DNA of 64,000 bases from Promethearchaeota archaeon (GCA_048939625.1 JBHLPH010000002.1:32001-96000); one strand, 5' to 3'. Positions 26,332 through 34,472 are shown, numbered from the stretch's first letter. Made by a program: numbers and translations. The notes: a model not told the origin generated them from the sequence alone.

Positions 26332-27537
26332 ATGGCCAAAACACCCACAACCATGACCATCCCAATTGGTCCCCAACACCCTGCGCTCAAAGAGCCAGAA
26401 AACTTCACCCTCACCGTCGACGGGGAAGTCGTCGTCGACGTCGCACCCCGAATTGGTTACGTCCACCGAGGTATCGAAAAAGCATTTGAAAGCCGAACGT
26501 TTAGCCAAAACGTCTACCTCGCGGAACGGATTTGCGGTATCTGCTCCCAATCCCATACCACATGCTACGTCCAAGCCGTCGAAGAAATTCTCGATTTAGA
26601 AGTTCCCCCACGTGGATTATACATTCGGGGCATCATGAATGAGCTGAACCGGATTCACAGCCACATCCTCTGGCTAGGCGTGGCTGGTCACGAAATCGGA
26701 TGGGACACCCTCTTCCACTATTCGTGGCGTGATAGGGAATACAGCATGGATATTATTGAAGAAATTTGTGGGAACCGTGTCAACTACGCCAACAACATCA
26801 TTGGCGGCGTCCGCCATGATGTGGAGAAGAGCCAAGTCCCGGGCATGGTGGAACGCCTCGAAAAAATCCGTGACCGCATGCACCACTACCTGAAATTAAT
26901 CCTGAATGAACAAACCATTTTAGACCGGGCCCTTGGTGTGGGCATCCTCGAAACTGAAGTCGGAAAAGCCCTCTGTGCCACTGGTCCCACTGCCCGCGCC
27001 TCCGACATCCACTGGGACGTGCGCAACACCCAACCCCGCACCCCCTACCAAGAAAGCGAAAACAAACACTGGGAAATCCGCACCTCCGACCTCTGCGACG
27101 TCGCCGGCCGCGTCGTCGTCCGAATACTTGAAACCGTCGACGCCTGCACCTGCTGCATCGACTGGCTCAAACACCTCCCCCCAGGCGACATCAGCGTCCG
27201 CGCCCCCCGCCGCGTCCCACCCGGCAAAGCCCTCAGCACCTTCGAAGCCCCCCGCGGCGAAGTCGTCCACTTCGTCGTCAGCAACGGCACCGACAAACCC
27301 GAACGCCACAAAGCCCGCGCCCCCACCCTCGGCAACATCCCCAGCGTCGTCGAAATCATCAAAGGCGGCAAAATCGCCGACGTACCCATCGCCCTAGCCA
27401 GCATAGATCCCTGCTTTTCATGTACTGATAGAATCATTCTCGCGTATCCCGATGGTTCAAAGGAGGAAAAGCCTTGGGCATGGTTCCAAGAAAAAAGCCG
27501 CGAAGAGAGAGAAAAAGTGAAAGCTTGGCGCCGTTAG
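26332..27537 (+). CDS. Group 4 (energy-converting) [NiFe]-hydrogenase large subunit
   Basis: GPQHP, HRGIEK, L1 ERICGICSQSH, EAPRGE and L2 DPCFSCTDR motifs, followed by a 34-aa C-terminal extension. Confidence 0.93.
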   Translation: MAKTPTTMTIPIGPQHPALKEPENFTLTVDGEVVVDVAPRIGYVHRGIEKAFESRTFSQNVYLAERICGICSQSHTTCYVQAVEEILDLEVPPRGLYIRGIMNELNRIHSHILWLGVAGHEIGWDTLFHYSWRDREYSMDIIEEICGNRVNYANNIIGGVRHDVEKSQVPGMVERLEKIRDRMHHYLKLILNEQTILDRALGVGILETEVGKALCATGPTARASDIHWDVRNTQPRTPYQESENKHWEIRTSDLCDVAGRVVVRILETVDACTCCIDWLKHLPPGDISVRAPRRVPPGKALSTFEAPRGEVVHFVVSNGTDKPERHKARAPTLGNIPSVVEIIKGGKIADVPIALASIDPCFSCTDRIILAYPDGSKEEKPWAWFQEKSREEREKVKAWRR

Positions 27538-27554
27538 TGATTCAGCCTCTTATC

Positions 27555-29567
27555 CTAGAGTAACCTTTCCATTCCTATCTTTGCCTTCCCTTTTCGGTCA
27601 ATTGACTTAAGGGATTTTTGCTTTTGATAATCCTTAATCCATTCGAGAGCCGCTTTTCTTTTCTCCCCAGAACTTGGTGGAGTTATGATTGCCCAGCAAT
27701 AGGTATCATTTTCGGATTTGGTATAGATTTCCCAGATTGCTGATACCCGATTGGTTTCATGGAGAATGATTTTTTTAAAGATCGTTGTCATTTGAATGCC
27801 TAAACTTTTGATTAGATTCTTTTCATCTTCAAGAAGTTCACAAGGATGGTTTTTAATAATTCGTCTTAATTCCCTGGCTATTTGTTCATCTTTTTGTGTC
27901 ATAGCTTGAGACGTTAGTTTATCTAGCCTTCCCTTCAATATTTCCATTCGTTTTCTGGGTTTATCATCTCGTATGGCTTCATATCGCTCTATACCATACT
28001 TCTGGATGAATTGATTATGTCTATGTGTGATCATTGGTTTGTATCTATACAGCTTGGTTTTGGGTCCTGCGTCGAGTACATGAGCACGTTTGATTCCGAA
28101 TTTCATTTGTCCATTTCTTTCAACAAAAAACCCATCTTCGGGGACAACTTCAGCAAGGTAAGCAGATCTCATCTCAAGTGTACCTTGTTTAATGGTTTGT
28201 GGTAAACGAAAATCGGGGCTGAGTAGTTTGTCGCCTTTGGGGACGCCCCAGTGTTCGAGGAGTCGACCGACGACTGCTGTTATTGTGAGACGTTTTCGTT
28301 GTCCTTGAAGTTCTTCGGTTTTGTAGTCGGTTTCTCCGAGTTGTCGGAAGAGGGTTCGGACGTATTCAATTCGTTTTGGATCTTTTTCGTGGTAGGTGAG
28401 GACGTGGGTGGTTTTGTTGATGTGGCAGTCGCTGAGGGCGATGGCGATGAGGCGGGCGCGGAGTTCGTTGAGTTCTTTACCTTCGGGGAAACGTGGGTTG
28501 TGGATGCCGCCGCTGTGTTCGGTGGTGCTGATGCGGCCGATGTGGGTTATGTGGGGGGTGATGGTGTTGAATGGTTGGTTGGTGGTGTTGAGGAGGAGGT
28601 GGAGGGTGTCGCCGTGGAGGTAGTGGTTGTATTTGGTGGACCAGAGTTCGTAGGGGGCGGCGCGGGGGTTGTAGGTGCGGTGGCGGGGGTGGGTGGTGAG
28701 TTGGTTGAGGAGTTGGCCGAGTTGTTGGGTGTTGGTGTTGAGGTGGTGTTGGGCGGTGGTGAGGAGTTGTTCTTTGATGTGGGGGGTGAGGTAGAGGAGT
28801 TCGTGGTGGTAGGTGTTGAGCCAGTGGTCGGGGAGGGTGGTTTTGCGCCAGAGGTAGAGGACATCATGATCGATGGCGAGGCGAAGTTCTTCGTGGGTGT
28901 TGGCGAGTTGTAGGCGTTCGGTGAGTTTGCGTTCGAGTTCAGATCGGTGTTTTTGAATGGAGTGGGCGATGGTGCGGAGCTGTTGGGGGCCGCGTTTGTG
29001 GTAGGGTTTGAGTTCGGCGATGAGGAGCCGTTGGTCGGATTTGTGGTGGTAGAGGGTGGCGAGCGCGGTGGTGAGGGGGGCTGGGGTGTGGGTTGTGGGG
29101 TCGTCGAGTAAGTGTTGGAAGGTGGTGTAGACGAGGCTGGGATCGAGGAGGTGGGGTTGGGTTTCAGTTGGCAGATGGCGTTCCCAGCGGTGGCGGGCAG
29201 CCTCATGAATGGTGAGGGTGCGTTCGAGGTGGGGCTGTTTGATGCCAAGGTGCCAGTCGCGGAGGCGTCCGGCGGGGATGCCGGTGAGGTCTTGGAGGTC
29301 TTTGTAGGTTTTGTTGCTGAGGTGGCCATCGTGACGTGCCGCGGTGAGGATGCGGTGCCAGAGGGCATTAATGGAGGAGTGAGTGCATGTAGTGCGGGTT
29401 TGGAGGTAGGGGTGGCGTGCAAGGTCGTGTTCGAGGGTTTTCCAAGCGCGTGTGCCATATGTGTTGAGGAGTTGTCGGGCTTCGGGAGTTGCAGCTAGGG
29501 TGTCTCGGAGCATGGCCCAGTCGTGGATGGATGTCCAAGTCTGGTGAATGGAGTTGGTGGGAGACAT
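27555..29567 (-). CDS. HTH + LAGLIDADG-like (intein DOD-type) domain protein, free-standing
   Basis: N-terminal YKDLQDLTGIPAGRLRDW HTH; two LAGLIDADG-like helices (RARLIAIALSDCH, RSAYLAEVVPEDGF) with DOD-like spacing (..IEYVRTLFRQLG..GRLLEHWGVPKGDK..LPQTI). Confidence 0.6.
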   Translation of the reverse strand: MSPTNSIHQTWTSIHDWAMLRDTLAATPEARQLLNTYGTRAWKTLEHDLARHPYLQTRTTCTHSSINALWHRILTAARHDGHLSNKTYKDLQDLTGIPAGRLRDWHLGIKQPHLERTLTIHEAARHRWERHLPTETQPHLLDPSLVYTTFQHLLDDPTTHTPAPLTTALATLYHHKSDQRLLIAELKPYHKRGPQQLRTIAHSIQKHRSELERKLTERLQLANTHEELRLAIDHDVLYLWRKTTLPDHWLNTYHHELLYLTPHIKEQLLTTAQHHLNTNTQQLGQLLNQLTTHPRHRTYNPRAAPYELWSTKYNHYLHGDTLHLLLNTTNQPFNTITPHITHIGRISTTEHSGGIHNPRFPEGKELNELRARLIAIALSDCHINKTTHVLTYHEKDPKRIEYVRTLFRQLGETDYKTEELQGQRKRLTITAVVGRLLEHWGVPKGDKLLSPDFRLPQTIKQGTLEMRSAYLAEVVPEDGFFVERNGQMKFGIKRAHVLDAGPKTKLYRYKPMITHRHNQFIQKYGIERYEAIRDDKPRKRMEILKGRLDKLTSQAMTQKDEQIARELRRIIKNHPCELLEDEKNLIKSLGIQMTTIFKKIILHETNRVSAIWEIYTKSENDTYCWAIITPPSSGEKRKAALEWIKDYQKQKSLKSIDRKGKAKIGMERLL

Positions 29568-29718
29568 GGTCTGTTCAGTAGGAGGGGGTGGAGAATTGGC
29601 TTTATACTCCTCAAATGGGGTGGTGGGAGTTATGGTGATGAGGACACCTCTCCCAGGGGCCCGGATTTTATTTCCTTTAAATGGATTACGGTGAGCAGAA
29701 CGGGAGGTGTGTCTGTGA

Positions 29719-29778
29719 GCATGGTTCCAGGCGAAGAGTTGGGGAGAGCGGGAACGCGTGAAGGCGTGGCGTCGTTAA
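29719..29778 (+). pseudogene. Displaced copy 1 of the hydrogenase large-subunit 3' end
   Basis: Translates AWFQAKSWGERERVKAWRR* versus AWFQEKSREEREKVKAWRR* in the live gene (27478-27537); upstream codons decayed. Confidence 0.85.
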
Positions 29779-33542: not shown

Positions 33543-33668
33543 TCATTACGCTTCTTTTCTGAGTTTTTATGACTTGTGGGAGTCAGCGTGCATGTTCTGA
33601 AGTACTCTGCAGTGCTAGTGATTGCGAAAAGCAATTAGTGATTAGCTGCAAGTAATTTACTGATTGAA

Positions 33669-34070
33669 ATGAACAAAGCTCGAGAAATGACCGAAGAAAA
33701 ATGGAAGAAGAAGTTGTCAAAGGACGAGTATCAAGTATTGCGGCAGAAGGGCACTGAGCGCCCTTTCACCGGGAAATATTGGAAGCATAAGGAGAAAGGG
33801 ACATACAAGTGTGCGGGGTGTGGTTTGGAGTTGTTCTCCTCAGAGGCGAAGTTTGAGTCGGGGAGTGGGTGGCCAAGTTTCTATGAGGCCCTGGATAAGG
33901 ACAAGATTGAGGAAAAAGTGGATCTGTCGCATGGGATGCGCCGAATCGAGGTTCTGTGCAAGAACTGTGGGGGGCATCTGGGTCATGTGTTCGATGATGG
34001 ACCAAGAGATAAGACCGGGTGCCGATACTGTATCAATTCCGTTGCACTCCAGTTTGAAAAGGATGAGTAG
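33669..34070 (+). CDS. msrB: Peptide-methionine (R)-S-oxide reductase
   Basis: GTERPF, Cxx[22 protein letters not shown] and RYCINS motifs. Confidence 0.97.
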
Positions 34071-34079
34071 TGCAGTGGC

Positions 34080-34331
34080 TTAGGCGATGGCTTTGTTTTT
34101 CAATTCGTGAGTCCGTAGAATAGCGCCCATGACGAGGAGAATTATCCCGCTTAGGATGAATGCAAGGCTGATCCATGGAGCAAGTGGATGGCAGGGACCA
34201 CAGAAATAGAATAGCGATGATCCGAGGACTGTGCCGATGCCAAGACAGACTACGCCAATGATGATTAAACCAGTTCCAAAGGGGACTTCAGGTTTGACTT
34301 CCTTTTCTACGTGTGCGTTTGGTTCCGTCAT
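34080..34331 (-). CDS. Small 2-TM membrane protein
   Basis: Two hydrophobic segments joined by a CGPCHP loop. Confidence 0.55.
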   Translation of the reverse strand: MTEPNAHVEKEVKPEVPFGTGLIIIGVVCLGIGTVLGSSLFYFCGPCHPLAPWISLAFILSGIILLVMGAILRTHELKNKAIA

Positions 34332-34472
34332 AGTATGATTCCCCTACCCATTGTACTTACTTTGCAGCGTCTTTTTTGAATTTTCCTGTTGAGAAAGGAA
34401 TTTGAGGGAAAACTTTGTGGTAGTAGAAGGCTTTTTTAGCAGAAGCGAATCATAAAGGAGACCCACTGGAGA

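Follow-up and report, generated by a model that had tools for sequence, protein, structure and literature searches.

Why should the end of one archaeal gene recur downstream of that gene, with unrelated genes lodged between the copies? The question arises from a stretch of 64,000 nucleotides of a Promethearchaeota archaeon (GCA_048939625.1 JBHLPH010000002.1:32001-96000; hereafter the window), in which the hydrogenase gene hydL is followed by three relics of its own tail. We find that the locus probably combines a homing genetic element, which exchanges the 3' end of the gene it invades, with the debris of earlier invasions. An initial annotation had read the array as integron-like, with the tails as attachment sites recombined by an unseen integrase; the evidence favours homing by the adjacent LAGLIDADG gene, for which relic tails would act as homology arms.

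Displaced tails behind hydL

The hydL product matches Pfam Complex1_49kDa (3e-54) and NiFeSe_Hases (6.5e-18), and its translation holds both nickel-binding motifs, L1 as RICGICSQSH (RxCGxCxxxH) and L2 as DPCFSCTDR (DPCxxCxx(H/R)); a HycI-type maturation protease gene was found in the same genome. The features of the locus are collected in Table 1.

Table 1. Features of the hydL array, with positions counted from the first nucleotide of the window
Feature	Position	Strand	Basis
hydL, group-4-type [NiFe]-hydrogenase / complex-I 49-kDa-like large subunit (host gene)	26332..27537	+	
L2 codons DPCFSCTDR, common left boundary of relics	27406..27432	+	relic starts, C3 drop
Functional hydL tail, 42 codons + stop	27409..27537	+	identity drop, discordant trees
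orf670, free-standing double-LAGLIDADG homing-endonuclease-like gene, 670 aa	27555..29567	-	convergent on hydL
orf670 LAGLIDADG nuclease domain, ~residues 360-655	27603..28490	-	structure model, fold search
orf670 N-terminal helical domain, putative DNA-binding	28491..29567	-	structure model, weak likenesses
Relic tail 1, last ~25 codons + stop, adjoins orf670 start	29704..29778	+	nhmmer E 1.4e-12
Cargo block with genes for PGF-type 169-aa protein, RHH-proteasome-alpha-like, small RHH (+), XRE HTH, DUF3796	29833..32051	-	Pfam
Relic tail 2, complete, L2 to stop codon; one stop, one frameshift	32118..32240	+	profile positions 121-245
136-aa membrane protein, cargo	32325..32735	-	comparison with relatives
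Relic tail 3, full length; stops and a frameshift	32773..32898	+	profile positions 110-249
Flavodoxin (-), msrB (+), 83-aa TM protein (-); cargo or old residents	33069..34331	mixed	Pfam
nuoH-like and nuoI-like subunit genes, distal end of array, ancestral hydL neighbours	34473..36049	+	Pfam NADHdh 7e-76

Blastn with positions 27300-27560 as the query recovered three partial tail copies on the same strand of the window, at 32125-32236 (70% over 115 nt, E 5e-8), 32819-32900 (73% over 83 nt, E 5e-8), and 29716-29777 (73% over 62 nt, E 3e-4). A tail DNA profile matched four times in the entire 2.3 Mb assembly, at the functional tail and at three same-strand relics (29704-29778, E 1e-12; 32118-32240, E 7e-24; 32773-32898, E 2.5e-22), the E-values of two relics being inflated because both were in the profile; the third was not. 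Both methods bear out, and strengthen, the earlier description of tail copies in one orientation, and the first gene behind each of the four tails converges on that tail from the minus strand, again as described. Two details required correction: the copy placed at 32825-32898 is full length and begins at 32773, and copies 2 and 3 start from the Pro and first Cys codons of DPCFSC, which correspond to 27409-27414 in hydL, and not at the second Cys, where the longest copy had been said to begin.

The translated relics are still recognisable as tail peptides, interrupted by stops and frameshifts. Sites that differ from the gene's own functional tail are distributed over the three codon positions as 11/12/21, 10/7/18, and 7/7/21 in the window relics, and the differences of all genus-1 relics from the nearest functional tail are 0.25/0.21/0.43 (chi-square p 1e-18). 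The excess at third positions described earlier is upheld, as is the view that the relics are once-functional tails.

In 11 related genomes we found about 30 relics, all on the hydL strand and between hydL and nuoH. When the profile was made solely from functional genes, none of 25 relics reached into the 120 nt of conserved hydL body, 11 of the 25 started at profile positions 118-129 (121 being the Pro360 codon), and 23 ended at the stop codon. The clustering of starts at the Pro codon agrees with the crossover at L2 that had been proposed as common to the relics, and the L2 codons are presumably the nuclease target or the crossover zone. In 8 of 25 relics the boundary is of a second class, immediately behind the second Cys, and a third class lies at about KPWAWFQ, next to orf670; a single cut site does not account for these two classes.

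Block content differs among the relatives and empty sites occur, as would be expected from the initial annotation. For example, hydL is directly followed by nuoH and nuoI in G025, while G002 retains the uninvaded order in which msrB comes directly after the functional tail; msrB follows a relic in G001, G010, G013, and G011, and the spacer before it is homologous between G002 and these four invaded genomes. In G007 and G012 the PGF and XRE genes were found again elsewhere in the array, and the gene for the 136-aa membrane protein is relic-flanked in G007 too and is also present in the G013 array. Convergent remnants of the nuclease 3' end lie behind three buried relics, and most cargo blocks are devoid of such a remnant. 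Cargo identities between species are 78-89%, which looks vertical, several relics and cassettes have orthologues in other species, and relic 1 with the promoter flank of orf670 has orthologous copies in G010 and G011. Since the arrays are partly orthologous, their turnover is slow, not integron-fast. Presence/absence polymorphism within species was not seen directly in these genomes, all of which are metagenome assemblies.

The body and the tail of hydL are discordant. Between species, nucleotide identity is 61-84% in the tail as compared with 89-96% in the 60 codons before L2, C3 falls across L2 from 62-88% to 30% and then to 11-17%, and both C3/G3 content and synonymous identity break sharply at L2 in all orthologues. 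The tail tree groups G011 with G005 (support 100/99), a clade rejected by the body data (p-AU 0.0002), and the body clade of G002 and G005 is rejected by the tail data (p 0.02), the clades for these topology tests having been named after the trees had been seen. Direct evidence of tail replacement comes from G011: its functional tail is of type B, and 4.3 kb downstream lies an intact relic of type A with 85% identity to the G013 functional tail. The current hydL tail in the window appears to have come from the element. Across species the nucleases form a star-like tree (58-67% amino acid identity) that does not follow the tails; in G011 and G005 the tails are 87% identical but the nucleases only 59%, so either tail and nuclease do not always travel together, or tails are also exchanged by plain recombination.

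The LAGLIDADG gene next to hydL

The stop codon of hydL is separated from orf670 by 17 bp, and orthologues of orf670 adjoin hydL in 7 genomes. As judged from its structure model, orf670 is a double-motif LAGLIDADG homing-endonuclease-like protein. The model of the C-terminal domain (pLDDT 95.3) has the arrangement of LAGLIDADG proteins, with two alpha-beta-beta-alpha-beta-beta-alpha domains and one LAGLIDADG helix in each, and the top 50 Foldseek matches in the PDB were all LAGLIDADG folds, with I-Tsp061I as the best (2.3e-7); other matches were I-DmoI (TM 0.65) and PI-SceI. WhiA is also among the best fold matches, and the fold comparison gave a VIA Z of 8.4-8.5. Each LAGLIDADG motif ends in an acidic residue: D380 of LSDCHI is invariant in 36 sequences, and E477 of PEDGFF is invariant in six orthologues, with G479 at least 90% conserved in the family. 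Pfam LAGLIDADG_3 was detected in 6 of the 36 family members (best E 1e-4), and neither a Hint nor a zinc-finger domain was detected in orf670 by Pfam at E up to 10. The dN/dS of 0.18-0.55 indicates purifying selection.

The N-terminal domain, modelled at pLDDT 70-90 over residues 13-245, has only weak likenesses, which are cyclin/TFIIB-like (Z 5-6) and, in one orthologue, HTH_28 (E 0.037). Its coding strand is extremely C/A-rich, with a GC skew of +0.6 that makes it the most extreme patch of the genome, whereas the DNA of the LAGLIDADG domain is AT-rich and without skew. Such an extreme C/A strand skew with sharp bounds marks these nuclease genes and the stretch of each target next to them, and may be a trace left by the homing process through mutation or selection.

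Proposed tail replacement and its alternatives

By analogy, the element is best read as a prokaryotic counterpart of the yeast WHO elements, with passenger genes and with no integrase involved. The orf670 endonuclease would cut element-free hydL alleles at or near the L2 (DPCxxC) codons, and the break would be repaired from an element-bearing genome, with homology provided on the left by the hydL body and on the right by a relic tail; relic 1 is likely the right-hand arm of the newest unit. The segment copied would comprise a new tail, presumably resistant to cleavage, the convergent nuclease gene, and whatever precedes the relic, while the former tail of the recipient would be displaced downstream. 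Repeated rounds would stack the relics with the newest closest to the gene, and the accretion of cargo blocks in this order, already recognised in the initial annotation, stands. Genes trapped between tails would probably ride as passengers and be reshuffled through relic-relic recombination, and older nuclease genes would decay. Homing endonucleases had earlier been cited merely as a precedent, and orf670 had been counted as the first cargo block; the precedent is now the favoured mechanism, and the gene is no longer regarded as cargo.

The array could also consist of tandem integrative islands or cassettes, in which a site-specific recombinase encoded elsewhere or of an unknown family joins an element-borne hydL tail to L2, like islands at tRNA 3' ends or integron cassettes. 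The anatomy fits, as the block of identity runs from a fixed crossover to the gene end, the relics are in direct orientation, and the cassettes carry diverse cargo and have been shuffled between species. However, no recombinase domain was detected by Pfam in any ORF of 26332-36049, in line with the earlier remark that the region holds no integrase, or in ten large cargo ORFs of relatives. Tyrosine recombinases are absent from every array examined, and the genome-wide search, which covered tyrosine recombinases, gave a single Phage_integrase match in the whole assembly, on another contig (C10). What abuts the target in the seven genomes and in other Asgard lineages is a conserved LAGLIDADG gene, with remnants after buried relics, and we consider a recombinase-driven origin unlikely. 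The star-like nuclease tree is what rapid evolution under vertical descent would give, some relics have orthologues in other species, and WhiA ranks with the best fold matches, all of which would suit relics formed as old local duplications (by unequal crossing-over or slippage) and inherited vertically beside an orf670 that is a domesticated WhiA-like DNA-binding regulator. This is quite improbable, as it does not fit with the discordance of body and tail trees, with tail allele types common to distant species, and with the G011 relic, whose allele type is unlike its own functional tail; both putative catalytic acidic residues are conserved in orf670, unrelated target genes show the same layout, and local duplication leaves the boundary fixed at L2 in two genera unaccounted for.

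Roughly half of the related assemblies are broken within hydL or shortly behind it, which indicates a region that is hard to assemble, and strain variants of the hydL 3' end might have been joined chimerically by assembly or binning of a metagenome-assembled genome. Such variants are expected to be near-identical, whereas the relics are 60-80% identical with frameshifts, bear stops, and are separated by kilobases of unrelated genes. The same ordered structure is seen in over 11 independent assemblies as well as in other Asgard lineages, which makes an artefact very hard to credit.

Related systems and the wider nuclease family

Homing by replacement of a 3' end was previously known only from a few yeasts, in which such elements have been termed a rare third category beside introns and inteins. 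WHO elements at FBA1 of Torulaspora and Lachancea are an experimentally supported precedent for the mechanism (Coughlan et al. 2020, PMC7282813; for WHO elements see also Osborne et al. 2026 preprint, 10.64898/2026.08.13.744650). As at hydL, the gene for a LAGLIDADG-type endonuclease directly follows a conserved host gene, which is chimeric in having a 3' part far more diverse than its 5' part and discordant in its tree, and 3' fragments with a common start lie in the same orientation. Each integration swaps the host 3' end and displaced fragments stack with the newest nearest the gene, the 3' fragment being the homology arm and old nuclease genes decaying, as would be the case here. In contrast, the present host is archaeal, whereas WHO elements reside in the yeast nucleus; here the nuclease gene converges on its host gene, the replaced part amounts to only about 42 codons, and the arrays hold many unrelated cargo genes and never more than one intact nuclease. 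In addition, several host genes are invaded by the family, and the array interrupts an operon. Since orf670 is without Hint/intein or zinc finger and its N-terminal helical domain is unrelated, it is not a member of the WHO/HO family, and the likeness is one of mechanism only.

Fungal mitochondrial homing-endonuclease insertions, for example in Allomyces atp6, supply a replacement C-terminus, and the resident 3' end displaced by the foreign gene end and endonuclease ORF is kept as a pseudogene; unlike here, each is a single event in an organelle genome, with an ORF that is often fused in frame and without cargo arrays. In the intronless homing of phages, free-standing homing endonucleases are also encoded beside their targets and flanking markers are co-converted, but the target end is not duplicated and no arrays are formed. 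With integrons the locus shares ordered cassettes of one or a few genes of diverse function, separated by a recombination-related repeat, shuffled between relatives, and newest beside a fixed site. It differs in having no IntI-type integrase, in repeats that are decayed coding tails and not attC hairpins, in insertion that is probably break repair with homology arms, and in slow turnover. Tandem islands at tRNA/tmRNA 3' ends likewise have borders marked by displaced ends, and in both cases the gene stays intact because the element brings its own version of the target 3' end; here the target is a protein-coding tail, there is no integrase, and the copies are only 60-85% identical.

The orf670 family comprises at least 346 clusters at 50% identity. 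Among the members examined, the layout of target 3' end, convergent nuclease, and relic was also found at other genes on other Asgard contigs, namely a group-3 hydrogenase (3-4 relics with cargo), an aminotransferase, and ScpB (twice). We tentatively suggest that Asgard archaea could carry a large undescribed family of free-standing LAGLIDADG proteins that homes by replacing 3' ends (NiFe hydrogenases of two groups, ScpB, aminotransferase), and that the targets, unlike those of the yeast WHO elements, become gene-capture platforms in which relic tails are portable homology arms shuffling passengers, an integron-like outcome without an integrase. None of the papers searched connects LAGLIDADG genes, Asgard archaea, and hydrogenase gene ends. 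If this reading is right, prokaryotes too use the strategy, which has arisen there with another protein architecture and is common among the archaea most closely related to eukaryotes, and a homing endonuclease can turn its target into a hot spot for gaining genes horizontally. The split hydrogenase operon and the assembly breaks at the locus would also be explained, and natural nucleases with long sites and predictable targets would become available as a family. Annotators should be aware of the relic tails and of the chimeric nature of the hydrogenase gene, which call for caution in phylogenies based on hydL.

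Stacked hydrogenase tails downstream of hydL

The [NiFe]-hydrogenase large-subunit gene, hydL, has both nickel-binding motifs and matches Complex1_49kDa and NiFeSe_Hases in Pfam. By blastn against the window, we found three extra same-strand copies of its 3' end (E 3e-4 to 5e-8), whose translations are still recognisable tail peptides, broken by stops and frameshifts. A DNA profile of the tail (the last ~42 codons and the stop) extended these relics and, over the whole 2.3 Mb assembly, matched the functional tail and the three relics only, which confirms the stacked copies described in the initial annotation. 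Two of its details changed: the third copy, given as short (32825-32898), is full length, and copies 2 and 3 start at the Pro/first-Cys codons of the DPCFSC motif rather than at the second Cys, where the longest copy had been said to begin. The proposed excess of synonymous change was recovered, as differences between relics and the nearest functional tail fall mainly at third positions (0.25/0.21/0.43, p 1e-18), a pattern that fits tails that were once coding and decayed afterwards. Stacked tails at other genes, also envisaged, did not emerge from two scans of the source genome; hydL alone was convincing.

Coordinates of the features discussed in the text
Feature	Sequence	Coordinates	Strand	Details
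hydL	window	26332-27537	+	L2 codons at 27406-27432
Relic 1	window	29704-29778	+	blastn match 29716-29777
Relic 2	window	32118-32240	+	blastn match 32125-32236
Relic 3	window	32773-32898	+	blastn match 32819-32900
orf670	window	27555-29567	-	homing-endonuclease-like
Proteasome alpha-subunit-like gene	window	30403-31254		cargo
Skewed patch	window	26800-27415		third-position C 60-88%, G 0-8%
Skewed patch	window	28200-29567		third-position C 60-88%, G 0-8%
LAGLIDADG gene	C38	114-1862		free-standing, two motifs
LAGLIDADG gene	C61	17228-18838		free-standing, two motifs
LAGLIDADG gene	C19	4186-6051		free-standing, two motifs
RuBisCO large-subunit fragment	L036	2909-3169		86 aa, C-terminal
Four relic tails	L023 (G016)	827-4772		sister genus
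msrB, then GDPD gene	L014 (G012)	12323-14566
msrB, then GDPD gene	L015 (G007)	7998-9229

The boundaries of the relics were mapped with a profile of the tail and 120 nt of body, derived solely from functional genes; it detected 25 relics in genus 1, none of them aligning to the hydL body. The largest group of starts (11/25) falls at profile positions 118-129, where the Pro codon is 121, so that the crossover at L2 proposed as common to the copies is upheld for this cluster; two further groups start at positions 137-149 (8/25) and 171-188 (4/25, three of which adjoin the start of orf670, a double-LAGLIDADG gene). The relic ends at the stop codon in 23 of the 25. A single cut site does not account for three boundary classes, unless deletions followed.

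Empty sites, which had been anticipated, exist in relatives. In G025, a distant relative, nuoH and nuoI come immediately after hydL. In G002, where relics and nuclease gene are both absent, the next gene is msrB, 110 bp downstream. The interval between tail stop and msrB start in G002 shares homology with the relic-to-msrB spacer of G001, G010, G013 and G011. The msrB-adjacent relic in these four genomes is thus the former tail still in its native context, parted from the gene body by insertions at L2.

The orf670 nuclease family

The orf670 gene is convergent with hydL, with 17 bp between its end and the hydL stop, and has orthologues in the same position in G012, G003, G010, G011, G005 and G014; its closest homologues are in Hodarchaeota, Hermodarchaeia and Thorarchaeota assemblies, which places the source genome among the Asgard archaea. 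It has no Pfam match at E 0.01, and a six-sequence profile gave no sequence match to PDB chains. Six orthologues share the motifs LSDCHI and PEDGFF without variation, and a profile search yielded a family of at least 346 cluster representatives. A model of the whole protein was poor (pLDDT 64, weak matches only). Modelled with a deeper alignment of 36 family representatives, the C-terminal 321 residues reached pLDDT 95.3, and their best 50 PDB matches are all LAGLIDADG folds (I-Tsp061I at 2.3e-7, PI-SceI, I-DmoI, WhiA), with Z 8.4-8.5 by VIA; LAGLIDADG_3 of Pfam is matched by 6/36 members. For the N-terminal domain we obtained weak cyclin/TFIIB-like rows only (Z 5-6), and the leads of an atlas search were all low (<0.9). 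The nuclease domain has a dN/dS ratio of 0.18-0.31, against 0.35-0.55 for the N-terminal part. Between species, the nucleases share 58-67% identity and form a star-like tree; they do not track the tails, and the expected co-phylogeny of the two was absent. Three buried relics (in G001, G006 and G016) are closely followed by convergent remnants of orf670 3' ends.

The layout at hydL is common to other family members. One abuts the stop of a group-3 NiFe hydrogenase large-subunit gene on contig L029, and another lies near the 3' end of such a gene on Thorarchaeota contig L028, with a 158-aa gene between; on both contigs three or four relic tails, each beginning at that gene's own L2 motif, lie past the nuclease gene, with genes for acetyltransferase, flavin reductase, methyltransferase, PadR, nitroreductase and small GTPase proteins in between. 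A further member abuts an aminotransferase gene, where the relic of 153 aa is 73% identical to the functional tail, and two lie directly against ScpB, where in each case a short relic immediately precedes the start of the nuclease gene. The members on L030 and L036 also abut a convergent gene; no relic of its tail was found on these short contigs. L036 further carries a RuBisCO fragment 850 bp beyond the 3' end of the nuclease gene and on the same strand, and the 6.8 kb contig has no full RuBisCO gene.

Three other free-standing LAGLIDADG genes of the source genome each converge on a neighbour, ~60 bp or less from its stop, the neighbours being a small GTPase, a 620-aa protein and a beta-propeller-like protein. 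We found no relic tails beside these three genes (that on C38 starts at the contig end), nor does the orf670 profile match them.

Arrays in related genomes

A protein search of 30 related genomes revealed tail-only matches downstream of the hydL orthologue in most genus members and in the sister genus. The fetched loci hold ~30 relics in 11 genomes, all on the hydL strand and all between hydL and nuoH. Most genes between the relics are singletons when genomes are compared; the types present include solute-binding, TPR, LVIVD, WG-repeat, radical-SAM, GH3, HEAT, CorA and acyltransferase proteins. Cassettes for flavodoxin, a 136-aa membrane protein, the PGF protein and a 451-aa surface protein reappear in other orders or combinations in G000 (the source genome), G007, G012 and G013; block content varies among relatives, as had been proposed. 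The 451-aa family (fam13), found right beside relics in three genomes, was weighed as a candidate for another mobility gene and rejected; it is a repeat-rich, membrane-anchored surface protein, and hence cargo. Several relics have orthologues in other species, and the identities of cargo genes look vertical, so array turnover may be slow.

Several individual loci deserve mention. One or two small genes separate neighbouring relics among the four of L023, at intervals of 0.7-1.5 kb; three relics are without stops and one has a single frameshift, making this the most integron-like stretch seen, on a 5.5 kb contig with hydL on another. The proteasome alpha-subunit-like cargo gene of the window has an N-terminal extension and third positions with 53-57% C and 2-10% G. 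The GDPD gene that follows msrB in G012 and G007 lies, in the window, beyond nuoH, nuoI and an NBP35-like gene; nuoH and nuoI were not found within the 18-19 kb fetched from these two genomes and may have been lost or moved. Contigs end inside the 3' part of hydL (G011:C31, G004:C337, G015:C157, G016:C203) or <1 kb behind it (G001:C55, G006:C62, G018:C4, G003:C27, G013:C180) in about half of the related assemblies (9/~18). Such breaks are expected from strain-level variation starting there, at which they hint without proving it.

Tail exchange, its possible mechanism and strand skew

Functional tails sort into allele types. That of G011 is type B and 87% identical to the G005 tail, while an intact type-A relic 4.3 kb downstream in G011 matches the functional tail of G013 at 85% identity and that of G011 itself at only 59%. 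The hydL body tree places G011 basal and joins G002, G005 and G004, whereas the tail tree joins G011 and G005 (100/99); for these clades, chosen after the trees had been inspected, the body data reject G011+G005 (p-AU 0.0002) and the tail data reject G002+G005 (p 0.02). Composition also breaks at L2: in all orthologues, third-position C is 62-88% and G 0-6% over codons 249-356, C is 30% in the L2 window and 11-17% beyond, with G up to 31-48%, and third-position identity at identical residues drops across L2 from 86-95% to 46-62%.

In WHO elements at yeast FBA1, the nuclease cuts element-free alleles, repair copies the resistant 3' end and the nuclease gene with the downstream fragment as homology arm, and repeated homing gives rise to stacked fragments and a chimeric host gene (PMC7282813); elements of this type form a rare third homing-element category known from yeasts (2026 preprint, 10.64898/2026.08.13.744650). 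By analogy, the facts at the hydL locus agree with this model, with putative cleavage by orf670 and putative resistance of the tail. Passengers would be copied each time a deeper relic served break repair as its right arm, and recombination between relics would reshuffle them. The orf670 protein is without the Hint and zinc-finger parts and so is not in the WHO protein family, and WHO clusters have no passenger genes, whereas hydL-type arrays carry them. An integrase as the driver of the integron-like array suggested initially is disfavoured, as no recombinase occurs in the arrays examined, including among the intervening genes of relatives, and the sole Phage_integrase match of the assembly is on another contig. 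Aloposons and other published Heimdallarchaeial elements were rejected on their tRNA sites and giant genes. As for WHO-like exchange at hydL, a HycI-type protease gene in the genome is compatible with removal of the swapped tail during hydrogenase maturation, though no demonstration of it.

Extreme C/A richness of the coding strand marks the part of the hydL body near L2 and the N-terminal half of orf670, and the skew is absent from the tail and nuclease domain lying between. The patches have sharp edges, are conserved in all orthologues and contain unusually conserved synonymous sites. On L028 and L029, the contigs with a group-3 hydrogenase from other Asgard lineages, the skew recurs at the same third-position composition, as it does in the nuclease half of L030; hydL of G025 and G029, relatives without an array, does not show it. 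Deamination of resected 3' overhangs at an L2 break was rejected as its source, because the opposite polarity is predicted and the skewed nuclease half sits within the copied segment; expression-linked codon bias fails to account for a skew that ends at L2 within one reading frame. Five patches in the genome have a GC skew >0.45, at least three of them on free-standing LAGLIDADG genes and a fourth overlapping one on C19, and the most skewed ORFs of the genome are free-standing LAGLIDADG genes and their convergent neighbours.
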